A DNA stretch of 57,847 nucleotides from an uncultured Gammaproteobacteria bacterium (lineage in GTDB: Bacteria; Patescibacteriota; Microgenomatia; UBA8517): positions 1-57,847 of the forward strand of contig CAZPLB010000005.1 of NCBI GenBank assembly GCA_964587425.1, read 5' to 3'. This document shows positions 36,242-47,161 of the stretch, in pieces (position 1 is the stretch's first letter; each line of letters opens with the position of its first letter). The notes beneath the pieces were generated by a model. The model saw only the letters and a program-made list of their open reading frames with translations. It made no database searches and was not told where the DNA came from. The translations under genes were made by a program, and so were the position numbers.

Positions 36242-36272
36242 TAGTTCTACTAATTCTACCAAATTTAGCATT

Positions 36273-36296
36273 AAAAAACCCCGATTTTGTCGGGGT
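36273..36296 (-). terminator. Intrinsic terminator after rplT
   Basis: Minus strand reads ACCCCGA-CAAAA-TCGGGGT followed by a T run. Confidence 0.8.
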
Positions 36297-36321
36297 AACT
36301 GTTGCCAAAGTAAAATTTAAT

Positions 36322-36663
36322 TTACTTCACTTCAGCAACTATGCTTTTAAAGCCTTCTTTGTCTTTAACTGCAATTTCAGAAAGTATCTTGCGGTCTACT
36401 TCAATTTTGTTTTTCTTCAAGCCATCAATGAATCTGCTGTATGAAAGTCCATGTTCACGAACCGCTGCATTTAGTCTTACTATCCAGAGAGCTCTCAAAT
36501 CTCTTTTCTTGAGCTTGCGGCCTATGTATGCATACTGTCCAGCATGGAGTACAGCTTCACGCGCTGTTCTAACTGTTCTTTTTCGGCTAGATTGTTTGTA
36601 GCCTTTTGCAAGCTTTTTAATCTTCCTATGCCTTATTTGTGCTTTCGATTTAACTCTTGCCAT
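36322..36663 (-). CDS. rplT: 50S ribosomal protein L20
   Basis: [25 protein letters not shown] and DRKILSEIA. Confidence 0.97.
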
Positions 36664-44126: not shown

Positions 44127-44165
44127 TCACTTCGCAATCTCATTTTCATTATTGTCTTCAGTTTG

Positions 44166-44238
44166 TGGTCGATGCCGGGCTCGAACCGACGACCTGCTCA
44201 ACGTCAATGAGCCGCTCTACCAACTGAGCTAACCGACC
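44166..44238 (-). tRNA. tRNA-Val(GAC)
   Basis: Cloverleaf with anticodon loop TT-GAC-GT. Confidence 0.95.
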
Positions 44239-44372: not shown

Positions 44373-44831
44373 ATGTTGGAAAGACCAAGAGAAGGTTGTG
44401 TATTCTGTGAAATAATTGGAGGCACAAGAAGTGGCCTTGTGATAGCCAAAACAGATAGGTCAATAGCCTTTATGTCGCTTGAAGGTCACCCCCTAGTGAC
44501 CCCTTTACATCATGTGGACGACTCCAACATAGACACATGTCTATTTGACATGATTGATGCATATGCACTAGCAAATAGACTAATACCAGCAGTGAGAAAA
44601 ATTTATGGAGTAAGTGCTGTAAATTTATTGGAAAACAGGGGAAGAGACGCAGGTCAGGAAATCAGCCACTTTCATATACATATAATTCCCAGAAGGAAAG
44701 CTGACAAAGCCTTGTCTCTTAAGGTTAATATAAAAAAGGAGGATGAAAGAATAAAAATAGCGGATCTACTAAAATCCGAGCTAGAAAGTATCCACAATCC
44801 CCTGCCTCCGCATCCTTCTAATCTTATTTAA
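44373..44831 (+). CDS. HIT family nucleotide hydrolase
   Basis: CVFCEI, GH.LV.P and AGQEISHFHIHIIPR (histidine triad). Confidence 0.93.
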   Translation: MLERPREGCVFCEIIGGTRSGLVIAKTDRSIAFMSLEGHPLVTPLHHVDDSNIDTCLFDMIDAYALANRLIPAVRKIYGVSAVNLLENRGRDAGQEISHFHIHIIPRRKADKALSLKVNIKKEDERIKIADLLKSELESIHNPLPPHPSNLI

Positions 44832-45527
44832 AAACCCTTTGTTGACCACAAAGTTCAGAGCATCATTCTCAACTTTACCCCATATTCCCTCGGGGTCATA
44901 AGTCGGTGTAGCATTTGCTCTGATATACTCTATTGTCTGTGAATAACTATTAACAGTTAACTTCTGTATATTTTGTACAATAACACCAGCATTACCACCT
45001 TTAAACTGATCTAATGACTCTATTAAATTTGAACAACCGGACAAGACAACATTTTTTACTCTTTCTCTTGTTGGCCTTATTGAATCAAGTAACATACTTC
45101 TCTCACAGTCGGATATGTCGCCAATAACTGCCATATCAATATTGCTCGGATCAGGGTGAGCCGGGCATTTCACTAGACCTCTTACTATAGAACCAAAAAT
45201 TACAACAGCGATCTCCCTTTGAGAATTTATCTTTTTCCACTCAAAAACGATACATTCTGTCATCTGCTCTGCAAGTAAATAAAGCTCTTGTCTTCTTTGG
45301 TAATCCACACTAGACATAAATTCTTTCCCAGCATCCTTGTTGGGATATCTCTTTCGTAGTGTACTAGAATAAAGGCTAAGCCATAATTTAGCCTTCTCAT
45401 TTTCAGTCAAAGGTCTAACCTGCTGAGAATTTCTTGAATTTTCCAATAACCATTCAAGCCCAGGAGGAATCAACATTTTTATCCCCCTTTGGGGGACATT
45501 TATAAGTAATTCATTAATTTCCTTCAT
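44781..45527 (-). CDS. Pol-beta superfamily nucleotidyltransferase-domain protein
   Basis: VVIFGSIVRG...SNIDMAVI matches hG[GS]..D.D with the first Asp replaced by Asn, followed by YDPEG. Confidence 0.65.
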   Translation of the reverse strand: MKEINELLINVPQRGIKMLIPPGLEWLLENSRNSQQVRPLTENEKAKLWLSLYSSTLRKRYPNKDAGKEFMSSVDYQRRQELYLLAEQMTECIVFEWKKINSQREIAVVIFGSIVRGLVKCPAHPDPSNIDMAVIGDISDCERSMLLDSIRPTRERVKNVVLSGCSNLIESLDQFKGGNAGVIVQNIQKLTVNSYSQTIEYIRANATPTYDPEGIWGKVENDALNFVVNKGFLNKIRRMRRQGIVDTF

Positions 45528-45538
45528 AATTTTTCATT

Positions 45539-45565
45539 AAAAAAAACCTCTCTGGTGAGAGGTTT
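45539..45565 (-). terminator. Intrinsic terminator in the leader of the nucleotidyltransferase gene
   Basis: AAACCTCTC-ACCA-GAGAGG followed by T8, ending 11 nt before the ATG at 45527. Confidence 0.85.
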
Positions 45566-45620
45566 GTCTTGTATCTATTTTATTTTTGTTTTCTGTTTTA
45601 CTTAATTCCTCCCACCAAAT

Positions 45621-45674
45621 TTAGCCCTCAGTAATGAGGTTAACCAAATTAATAGTGAGAGAACGCTTTAACAT
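45621..45674 (-). CDS. Putative leader peptide MLKRSLTINLVNLITEG
   Basis: ATG lies 7 nt below TATAAT (45682-45687), and the ORF covers the 5' arm of a long hairpin. Confidence 0.55.
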   Translation of the reverse strand: MLKRSLTINLVNLITEG

Positions 45675-45690
45675 TGAAAGTATTATATAA

Positions 45691-46371
45691 CTACCCTGCA
45701 CTTCTTTGCAAGAAGTCCTCAGGGTTAAGTAATCTTGAACCCTTTCCTTTTTGATACTGTCCCCAAAAGCCCTTCTTCTTGCTTGCTCTTTTGTTAGCTG
45801 AAGCCAACCAGAGTCCTGCACTTTCTATGTTTTTCCTGAAGGACTTTAAAAATTCCAATATAGCTTCCAAGAACACCTTGTGGTATTGACCTGGATTAAT
45901 AGGTGCCTCAAGACTCGCTGCCTCCACTTGTTTAGCTAGTTTTGGAGTAGTTGCTATTACAGCTTGAATTTCCTGCCTAATTGCATTTAGCTGCATACTA
46001 AGTTCACTACTTCGTCTTTCAAGTAAACTTTTTTCTTCATCTAAGATTCGTCTCTCAAAACTAATTTGTCTTGAAAGCTTTTCTTGCTGTTCTCTCTTTC
46101 CGTTATACACATCATTAACATTCAAGCTATCACCGCGTGTAATCTCTCCAGAGAAGTGTTTTTCAGGAGGCCTTTTCATTCCCATCAATTGAGACATGAA
46201 ATCCTTTGGAAGCTCTTTTAGAAAGTCCTGCCCAAATGCTTTTGCAGTTCCTCCACCTAAATCCTTAAGAGTCTCAAGAACATTCCCCTGCCTGGCCTGT
46301 TTTATTTGCTTCTGCTTTGCATTTTTGTCTGTCATATAGCCCATGTTATGCCGTGCTAACAAGGATTTCAA
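45691..46371 (-). CDS. Conserved hypothetical protein (DUF5660-like)
   Basis: Coiled coil, then PGQYH..FLE..L.FL..FRK.IESA..WL. Family name recalled from memory. Start may be ATG 46335. Confidence 0.6.
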   Translation of the reverse strand: MKSLLARHNMGYMTDKNAKQKQIKQARQGNVLETLKDLGGGTAKAFGQDFLKELPKDFMSQLMGMKRPPEKHFSGEITRGDSLNVNDVYNGKREQQEKLSRQISFERRILDEEKSLLERRSSELSMQLNAIRQEIQAVIATTPKLAKQVEAASLEAPINPGQYHKVFLEAILEFLKSFRKNIESAGLWLASANKRASKKKGFWGQYQKGKGSRLLNPEDFLQRSAG

Positions 46372-47161
46372 GAGCAGTTCTTCGCTTCAAAACAGACCGA
46401 ACGAGCATTTTTTGCTCTTCCCCAGCCGACTCGCTCACTCCGCTTGCAGCAATTGCTTTCATAACTTCAGCCTCATCCACAGTGACCCTTTCAGTACCAG
46501 CTATTTTATTCAAAACCAATTCCAACGTAATCCCCTCTGTAATTTGTTTTTCATACTCCGCTCTCAATGTCTTTTCATCTTTTCCGATTGATCCTAAATA
46601 CCCTTCAAGAGTGAGCCCTAGTTTTTCAATTCTGGCAAGAAGATTAGAAAGTCTGCCGTTCACCTCATCCTCAATTAATATTTTTGGGATTTTAATCTTA
46701 ATTGTCTCAAGTAAAGTCTTCACTGCAACCTGTTCCTTTTCTTCTTTAGTAAGTTCCTTTTTAAGTGAAATTGCACGAATGGCGCCTCCTACCAAGTTTT
46801 TATAGTCCCCCAAGTCAATTTCCGGAAGGTCTGCAGTAGTTGCCCTAATCTCCCAAACTTCTCCTTGCTTCATTACTTCAAATTTGGGATATGTAATTGG
46901 TTTAATTTTGTGTTCATCTAAAGCCTTGACATAAGCATCAGGGAGTAATTTACCAAGTGCCTTTTCAAGGACCTTTCCTGCGTCTATTTTCTCGTTTGCT
47001 TTCTCAACGGGTGCCTTTCCTTTACGAAATCCAGGAACCGCCACATTCTTTGCCAATTCTTCGAGAGCCGAATTCTTAGCATTCTCAATTTCTGCACTTG
47101 GAACACTGAAATTGATTTGAATAGTTCCGTCGTCAAGACGGGCTAGTGTATTTTTAATCAT
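46346..47161 (-). CDS. tig: Trigger factor lacking the FKBP PPIase domain
   Basis: VPGFRKGKAP ribosome-binding motif. In 271 aa the N-domain joins directly to the C-domain (IPKILIEDE). Confidence 0.9.
   Translation of the reverse strand: MIKNTLARLDDGTIQINFSVPSAEIENAKNSALEELAKNVAVPGFRKGKAPVEKANEKIDAGKVLEKALGKLLPDAYVKALDEHKIKPITYPKFEVMKQGEVWEIRATTADLPEIDLGDYKNLVGGAIRAISLKKELTKEEKEQVAVKTLLETIKIKIPKILIEDEVNGRLSNLLARIEKLGLTLEGYLGSIGKDEKTLRAEYEKQITEGITLELVLNKIAGTERVTVDEAEVMKAIAASGVSESAGEEQKMLVRSVLKRRTALEILVSTA

Follow-up and report, generated by a model that had tools for sequence, protein, structure and literature searches.

What decides whether transcription enters a gene whose start codon lies just behind an intrinsic terminator? 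This question is raised by the gene of a nucleotidyltransferase (NTase)-like protein (248 amino acids; 44781..45527, minus strand) in an uncultured bacterium of the Patescibacteriota (Microgenomatia, UBA8517; assembly GCA_964587425.1), of which we analysed 57,847 nt of contig CAZPLB010000005.1, hereafter the window. Taking all evidence together, the best explanation is probably a classical amino-acid-type, ribosome-mediated transcription attenuator before this gene, in which the position of a ribosome on a short upstream open reading frame (uORF) would set the fate of the terminator. That the element is a ribosome-dependent attenuator of whatever signal is very likely.

Promoter, leader ORF and competing helices in the window

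The leader region has a promoter of its own. A promoter scan found a sigma-70-type promoter (45682..45711, minus strand) with 10 of 12 consensus matches, consisting of a -35 box TTGCAA (45711-45706), an 18-nt spacer and a -10 box TATAAT (45687-45682), and lying in the last codons of the DUF5660 gene and just beyond its stop codon. Only 7 nt 3' of the -10 box, an ATG at 45674 opens a uORF of 17 codons plus stop, MLKRSLTINLVNLITEG* (45621..45674, minus strand; TAA at 45623-45621), so that a promoter-proximal short ORF precedes the regulated gene. The uORF has no Shine-Dalgarno (SD) sequence and, judged from the 7-nt distance, the leader transcript is presumably leaderless.

Downstream of its promoter, the leader can form three helices in competition with each other. 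Segment 1 (uORF codons 4-8; 45653..45663, minus strand) is the 5' arm of a predicted anti-antiterminator hairpin in the minimum free energy (MFE) fold and pairs at 11 of 11 positions (45663-45653 with 45617-45607) with segment 2, TGGTGGGAGGA (45607..45617, minus strand), enclosing the inner stems AATTTGGT/GCTAAATT and CCTCA-TTAC-TGAGG (45618..45650, minus strand) that contain the uORF stop codon. Alternatively, segment 2 can act as an antiterminator by pairing with the 5' arm and loop of the terminator, i.e. with segment 3 (45562-45553), in 10 of 10 pairs with an RNAduplex energy of -17.8 kcal/mol and z = -5.2 against 1000 shuffles. Following an A-rich spacer without structure in the fold (45566..45606, minus strand), segments 3 and 4 make up an intrinsic terminator with T8 (45539..45565, minus strand; terminator scan and fold), AAACCTCTC-ACCA-GAGAGGTTT at 45565-45544 with the T8 run at 45546-45539. 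The helices 1:2, 2:3 and 3:4 are mutually exclusive, 3:4 being the intrinsic terminator, and the MFE fold of the window leader contains exactly the terminator and the 1:2 hairpin including its two inner stems (z -4.98; 0 of 200 shuffles equal it). The first-pass annotation, made from the letters alone, had placed the -10 box, the uORF, the segments, the inner stems and the T8 terminator at these coordinates of the minus strand, and we find every one of them there. It had named a promoter between the terminator and the ATG at 45527 as a finding that would speak against its proposal; the distance from the T-run to this ATG is 11 nt, leaving no room for a separate NTase promoter.

The complementarity between segment 2 and the terminator is exceptional within the genome. 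A strict scan over the whole 777-kb genome, whose size of 0.78 Mb and gene content would fit the CPR affiliation assumed in the first-pass annotation, returned 59 terminator-like sites, among which the window terminator ranks first in upstream complementarity (-17.8 versus a median of -8.8). Strain variants, taken from low-depth contigs of four soil runs of one study, carry most of their substitutions and indels in the spacer 45566..45606 and others in uORF codons 2-5 and 15-16, codon 4 still encoding Arg after a double change. Two variants in the inner 1:2 stem are placed in a loop or preserve a G:U pair, and none falls in segment 2 or the terminator.

In equilibrium folding with an assumed ribosome footprint, the terminator probability of 0.98 dropped to 0.02-0.32 for P-site positions at uORF codons 6-11 and was back at 0.98 once the ribosome is at codon 12 onward with segment 2 covered, the A-site residues in the switching window being T7, I8, N9, L10, V11 and N12. 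The first-pass annotation had reasoned that a ribosome held on the early uORF codons would free segment 2. A similar switching window appeared in seven of nine leaders of a first simulation, which used incorrectly assigned terminator pairs for the leaders of the window and of locus L014, as well as in a second leader of the same genome on contig C3.

We propose a model in which transcription would start at, or a few bases from, the uORF AUG, resulting in a leaderless leader mRNA. With no stalled ribosome, or with a ribosome at the stop codon covering segment 2, the 1:2 hairpin and the 3:4 terminator would form and transcription would end 11 nt short of the NTase gene. A ribosome paused with codons 7-12 (Thr-Ile-Asn-Leu-Val-Asn) in its A site would cover only segment 1, the freed segment 2 would pair with the terminator 5' arm, and RNA polymerase would continue into the NTase gene. 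The likeliest trigger of such a pause would be too little charged tRNA for Ile, Leu or Val.

Conservation of the leader and a wider leader class

Homologous loci (L numbers) were gathered from two collections and from genome searches, yielding 15 distinct NTase-family genes with upstream sequence. The same leader layout is present before 13 of these, including both tandem paralogues in two genomes (L004, L005; 33% identical, hhalign probability 100), each paralogue having its own leader, and is absent at L008 and L012. It comprises a near-consensus promoter, a uORF of 13-20 codons (35 in L017), a long hairpin in which codons from the middle of the uORF pair with a G-rich segment starting at or just 3' of the stop codon, complementarity of this G-rich segment to the terminator 5' arm, and a T-run directly next to the gene; in L009 and L016, terminator and NTase are separated by an additional small ORF. 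Pairing is retained while the sequences of the helices differ, segments 2 and 3 being UGGUGGGAGG/CCUCUCACCA in the window, compared with GGCGGG/CCCGCC, GGGAGGUC/GACCUCCC or UUGGGAGA/UCUCCCAA elsewhere. A decayed Trp-sensing leader, which the first-pass annotation had considered on account of TGGTGG in frame behind the uORF stop, was rejected, since TGGTGG belongs to segment 2, changes in step with the terminator arm and gives way to GGCGGG or GGGAGG in homologues. Compared with shuffles, the 2:3 duplex is supported in most of 14 leaders, with p<=0.007 in 10 and 0.015-0.035 in three, and is not significant in L006. In 11 of 14 leaders, the distance of the in-frame stop codon from segment 2 is between -4 and +8 nt; either of the other two frames gives 0 of 14, owing to early stop codons.

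All-leader MAFFT alignments were not structure-consistent, and RNAalifold on them saw only part of the terminator. We therefore built a first covariance model, R1, from the closest leader pair, realigned its matches and iterated to a broader model, R2. None of the 30 predicted pairs is lost between these two closest leaders, with one compensatory and five one-sided changes among them. In the 14-leader alignment, which is fitted to the model's own structure, 93.5% of cells are paired compared to 65.2% in column shuffles, a value reached by 0 of 500 shuffles; in 26 of the 30 pairs both partners have changed, and pairing falls to 43-60% if the partner column is displaced by 1-3 positions. The first-pass annotation had made its case depend on conservation and covariation in relatives, and both are found. 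Together with the conserved layout and the lack of room for a separate promoter, they uphold its proposal of a ribosome-dependent attenuator with 1:2, 2:3 and 3:4 helices, and the search with covariance models that it had suggested recovered compensatory changes, short ORFs and downstream genes alike.

The terminator lies 3' of the DUF5660 gene (45691..46371, minus strand), which is outside the switch and follows the trigger factor gene tig (46346-47161, minus strand), and it probably also ends the tig-DUF5660 transcript. It is nevertheless highly improbable that the element is merely the terminator of this operon with a chance hairpin, the NTase gene having an unseen promoter of its own: besides the 11-nt gap, the leader has its own promoter, it accompanies the NTase and a HIT-family gene without DUF5660 at L017, and it stands between tandem paralogues at L004 and L005. 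DUF5660 marks a conserved chromosomal slot; the gene occurs in each of 26 relatives, and its downstream neighbours vary. Leader and NTase are absent at the 14 DUF5660 loci inspected in relatives, nothing similar lying 3' of DUF5660 there, from which we conclude that the leader travels with the cargo and not with DUF5660. Our full-text literature search, whose scope excludes subscription-only papers and supplements, found no paper mentioning DUF5660.

R1 and R2 also match elements distant from NTase genes, and the covariance model made from NTase leaders retrieved about 100 further leaders from small genomes. At E<=1e-3, R2 has matches in 54 of 101 genomes around the NTase carrier G458 (about 80 hits) and, at E<=0.01, in 16 of 61 genomes around the window's genome; leaders of NTase orthologues, most of them R2 training sequences, score 34.7-102.6 bits. 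A short ORF starting with ATG, GTG or TTG is found at the 5' end of the model in 41 of 42 top hits inspected. Among 41 class leaders, none has an SD-like motif at -16..-4, the start codon lies 6-13 nt behind the -10 box in 34 (7 nt in the window), and three start with GTG. The window leader shares the leaderless uORF without SD and the downstream family, works like the class and is at best a diverged member of it.

Within the class, the leader peptide matches the downstream gene wherever Pfam names that gene. A Phe-rich peptide, MKQCGNLFFSFFFTFA (6 Phe of 16), precedes prephenate dehydratase; aromatic peptides rich in F/Y/W precede DAHP synthase (twice), EPSP synthase and shikimate kinase; a Leu-rich peptide, MNKQLLLGLNLLTV (6 Leu of 14), precedes 2-isopropylmalate synthase (LeuA), and the Leu/Val/Ile-rich MTNISLSIVVLLVTR precedes a class IV aminotransferase of the IlvE type. 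Threonyl-tRNA synthetase genes are preceded by the Thr-rich peptides MTQLTHNITTQNRPL (4 Thr of 15) and MKIFTTTTTSC (5 Thr of 11), the latter from a genome of the window's own family. A genome of this family is also the source of the Lys-rich MKKKTTSF before a class II Asp/Lys/Asn-type synthetase. As read from these sequences, such matching is what characterises classical amino-acid attenuation. The regulon is only partly readable, since many of the downstream genes lack a Pfam family (12 of 22 in one set and 7 of 10 new ones in a second).

Leaders before synthetase genes were seen at L082 (G013), L088 (G004) and L007:2635-2731, with Thr-rich peptides before threonyl-tRNA synthetase and a KKK peptide before the Lys-type class II synthetase; going by the sequences, tRNA synthetase genes of such small genomes appear to be controlled by leader-peptide attenuation. 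Further class leaders precede Pfam-less ORFs, namely at L014:5866-5983 and L014:5983-7337 (100 and 333 amino acids), L007:911-1529 (165) and L017:5395-5694 (66). At L011:1708-1823, a leader-like element with a GTG start, MVRKFVICINILNS, matches R2 with 53.9 bits and has behind it, in place of a protein gene, a second hairpin and then tRNA-Val(GAC) at 1886-1962; it may be an attenuator before a tRNA gene or a remnant. An R2 match in the window itself at 36272-36351 (minus strand; 25.1 bits, E 0.15) was rejected as an ordinary terminator: it is a hairpin plus terminator between a gene end, which lies in the hairpin, and a gene with a pheS-like N-terminus (judged by eye), with no uORF having its own promoter.

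The same data bear on whether the ORF is translated at all. An untranslated RNA switch, such as a riboswitch or a protein- or tRNA-binding leader, in which the ORF is incidental, or a stand-alone gene for a small RNA or a small hydrophobic peptide, in which it is the product, would fit the strong promoter and terminator about 135 nt apart, expected to give an abundant short RNA, as well as the hydrophobic peptides and the absence of an SD. We consider this quite improbable, since a start codon occupies the predicted 5' end in nearly all inspected hits, only frame 0 is open to segment 2, the amino-acid content follows the downstream gene, and the regulated gene begins 0-20 nt past the T-run without a promoter of its own. 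Returning to the ribosome-dependent attenuator, we infer that the uORF is translated, the candidate stall site being that of the switching window.

The signal and the regulated protein

We give slightly better than even chances that the leader responds to a lack of charged tRNA for Ile, Leu or Val, a signal favoured because sibling leaders match gene to peptide and because the NTase leaders resemble the IlvE leader. The peptides of the window, L013/L014 and L016 are similar to the IlvE leader and to each other (S-L-[TS]-I-x-L-V-x-L-I-T), and several of the shared Leu and Ser residues are encoded in different codon families in the window compared to L016 or L013. By hand count without background comparison, the 168 residues of 10 independent NTase-leader peptides include Leu 33, Ile 20, Phe 16, Asn 14 and Val 11; by this count the NTase leaders as a group are rich in Leu and Ile, but not every one of them is.

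Several points weigh against an amino-acid attenuator of this kind. The amino-acid bias stays below that of the Phe and Thr leaders, the NTase leaders of L004b and L011 contain a single Leu, and a pyrimidine-rich segment 1 alone favours Leu, Phe and Ser codons. An IlvE-type aminotransferase and LeuA were not detected in the window's genome, which is 91% complete, placing the NTase gene outside any biosynthetic operon. The uORF substitutions are synonymous in four of six cases between L013 and L014, but mostly non-synonymous in other pairs and in the strain variants. On the side of the RNA, the antiterminator of L006 has only 4 bp, the leaders of L006 and L017 gave no switch in the first folding simulation, attenuation is a kinetic process whereas the footprint was assumed and folding was at equilibrium, and the covariation was counted on an alignment shaped by its own model. 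The window leader is too diverged for a full-length significant R2 match, only its terminator part being hit (45540-45595, 22.1 bits, E 0.5-2.5). Finally, the set of cargo genes, i.e. the NTase, a methyltransferase at L052 and a GNAT acetyltransferase on contig C3, also fits a drug response.

To judge the latter, the nature of the NTase-like protein has to be considered. Its gene has no SD, and the sequence conservation supports the annotated start at 45527 as real: M1 is invariant in eight aligned homologues and conserved in at least 90% of 36, and P12, R14 and P21 are invariant in the eight. The first-pass annotation had called the protein an orphan, which does not hold in the strict sense, since a search of 1.84 billion representatives gave 63 clusters at E<=1e-3. 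Its family is rare and has a patchy distribution: six of 81 genomes around G458 have a member, and no homologue was found in 60 relatives of the window's genome or in 400 genomes sampled from the phylum. It is unnamed, with no Pfam hit at E<=0.01 and no NCBIfam family; the gathering score of Pfam NTP_transf_2 is not reached by the window protein, and the tandem paralogue L004:2717-3520 scores 20.5 versus 21 bits. A sequence-profile search of the PDB gave no meaningful match, the ESM Atlas returned generic NTase-like clusters only, and PADLOC gave no match for the NTase, the neighbouring HIT protein matching its generic ThsC HIT model.

The AlphaFold model has a pLDDT of 94.3. Foldseek, a search that the first-pass annotation had proposed, gave only weak NTase-fold matches, none at E<=1e-3, the best being the MNT antitoxin (E 4.9e-3), with a probability of 0.98-0.99 to MNT. 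In a wide structural scan, core residues 73-227 aligned to the Pol-beta NTases ANT(4') (6nlt, Z 9.1), AAD(9) (6sxj, 8.6), the MNT protein HI0073 (1no5, 8.3), ANT(3'')(9) (7.9) and LinB (3jyy, 7.2), with DrrA, Rel and NF90/NF45 close behind. Compared with 6nlt, 6sxj, 1no5 and 3jyy, the shared core superimposes with a root-mean-square deviation of 2.9-3.9 Å over 98-120 residues, whereas the window protein has an unmatched N-terminal domain of 72 residues and lacks the ANT-type C-terminal helical substrate domain. These neighbours of the predicted model establish a Pol-beta NTase fold and not a function. The fold is accompanied by an hG[GS] motif, G112 and S113 being present in 36 of 36 family members. 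The metal-binding pair [DE]x[DE] departs from the rule: residues 126-131 are D-P-S-N-I-D, the S-N-I-D replacing the D-x-D of known enzymes, and position 129 is Asn in 31, Asp in four and Ser in one of 36 members, while D131 is found in 36 of 36 and D126 in 33 of 36. With Asn as the first carboxylate in 31 of 36 members, catalysis is not assured; the protein may have a non-canonical active site or may bind nucleotides without catalysing a reaction.

The same attenuator could sense a ribosome-targeting drug or translation stress, the NTase-like protein then being an inducible drug-modifying or target-protecting enzyme. NTases, acetyltransferases and methyltransferases are classic types of resistance enzymes, and all three occur as cargo here. 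Scanning the whole genome to which the window belongs revealed another leader built in the same way (C3:145147-145038, minus strand; L003:1512-1619), with the uORF MNTNLTTSVIESSRRRI and a terminator near-identical to that of the window, directly before a 173-amino-acid GNAT acetyltransferase (PF00583, 21.9 bits); it ranks first for R2 in this genome (28.3 bits, E 0.19). GNAT homologues in four relatives have no such leader, two of them following a tmRNA-like 3' end and two another structured RNA. At L052 (G524:C38; leader at ~1501-1612 of the reversed locus), a near-identical Leu-rich leader, MKSKSLSIRLVLLLTR, occupies the tig-DUF5660 slot before a 290-amino-acid S-adenosylmethionine-dependent methyltransferase (Methyltransf_11) in place of the NTase, and the slot seems to take interchangeable cargo. 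A drug signal would also fit the soil origin of the organism, the best structural alignments with antibiotic NTases and the weak amino-acid bias of some NTase leaders. We nevertheless consider it unlikely. The Z scores of 7-9 are tied with those for MNT, DrrA and Rel and concern residues 73-227 only, there is no sequence membership in ANT or Lnu families, the first catalytic carboxylate is mostly Asn, the gene lies in a conserved housekeeping slot and not in a mobile context, and the sibling leaders show a clear amino-acid logic with the NTase leader being like that of IlvE. Of the two signals that the first-pass annotation had offered, the Leu/Ile/Val shortage is the better supported, owing to the sibling leaders, and the drug signal is the less probable one. 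The fold that it had linked to Lnu/ANT enzymes is recovered as a resemblance of the core, with no sequence family hit to resistance enzymes.

Upstream of the GNAT homologues at L041 and L043, we observed two consecutive terminator-ended structured RNAs with no uORF by eye, none reaching an Rfam gathering threshold; these may be an undescribed riboswitch-like leader.

A HIT-family gene (44373..44831, plus strand; Pfam) runs convergently, its 3' end overlapping that of the NTase gene by 51 nt (44781-44831), and a convergent HIT gene is present at 9 of 12 NTase loci examined with Pfam. The 3' overlap measures 4-29 nt in L004, L006, L009, L011, L013 and L014, and read-through from the NTase gene would yield RNA antisense to HIT; the HIT coding region contains a terminator-like minus-strand hairpin (44778-44761). 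A tRNA scan identified tRNA-Val(GAC) (44165..44238, minus strand) as a conserved neighbour at six of eight loci scanned, i.e. in the window, L004, L006, L007, L009 and L011. No RelA_SpoT domain was found in the window's genome at its 91% completeness. As a long shot, NTase and convergent HIT hydrolase might form a starvation-switched pair of nucleotide writer and eraser, in which an Ile/Leu/Val stall would turn on the writer while read-through runs antisense into the eraser gene, substituting for the stringent response in reduced genomes without RelA/SpoT.

Relation to known attenuators

The attenuation mechanism itself is textbook knowledge; new are the leader class, its leaderless uORFs, the range of targets including tRNA synthetases, and the unexpected cargo. 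Within the literature scope given above, we found no full-text description of attenuators in such bacteria or of an attenuator-NTase pairing, and neither this literature nor Rfam contradicts the first-pass annotation, which had recognised no such pairing. Our data suggest that very small genomes thought to be supplied with amino acids by partners make wide use of classical attenuation, on leaderless uORFs, and that attenuation in small genomes reaches tRNA synthetases and not biosynthetic genes alone. The leader provides a functional handle on the unnamed NTase-fold family with its 63 clusters, on a methyltransferase and on a GNAT protein, all of which look like parts of an amino-acid-starvation or ribosome-stalling response. 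In addition, the composition of the leader peptide can be read as free annotation of the amino acid to which each gene responds in uncultured organisms.

In Rfam, the window leader has sub-threshold matches only, and 13 loci gave nothing at the gathering threshold except tRNAs. The best match, Phe_leader (RF01859), spans 45537-45675 with 23.7 bits versus a gathering score of 55 (E 0.69); the likeness is one of architecture only, the window peptide not being Phe-rich.

Drug-inducible leader peptides are found before resistance genes of the erm, cat and ABC-F types. As in these and in the leader before integron aac/aad genes, going by excerpts of PMC7588185, the position of a ribosome on a short uORF would decide an RNA switch before a modifying enzyme, and in the integron case, again as excerpted there, the regulated gene is an NTase, too. 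In contrast, the switch here is a transcription terminator and the amino-acid specificity of the sibling leaders is plain; none of the known arrest motifs was recognised, and no resistance-family membership was found for the NTase-like protein.

Leader peptides at attenuators on leaderless transcripts are known from Actinobacteria, namely Corynebacterium and mycobacteria, and attenuation via a uORF on a leaderless transcript is the likeness to the leaders described here. According to an excerpt of PMC3896937, leaderless mRNAs are common in Actinobacteria. The leaders studied here belong to another phylum and differ in RNA sequence, and the absence of an SD is a class-wide rule among them (0 of 41).

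The closest parallel in logic is provided by the his, trp, leu, phe, thr and ilv leaders of Proteobacteria, ribosome-mediated attenuation of his being treated in excerpted text of PMC3896937. Shared features are a short uORF, with clear enrichment of cognate residues in the sibling leaders, mutually exclusive 1:2, 2:3 and 3:4 helices, a terminator before the gene and a stop codon placed such that a finishing ribosome would block segment 2. The class described here differs in being leaderless, without SD and with a start codon 6-13 nt past the -10 box, in its uORFs of 13-20 codons with modest bias, and in its targets, which include tRNA synthetases and, in a genome without detectable branched-chain amino-acid synthesis, a non-biosynthetic NTase-fold protein.

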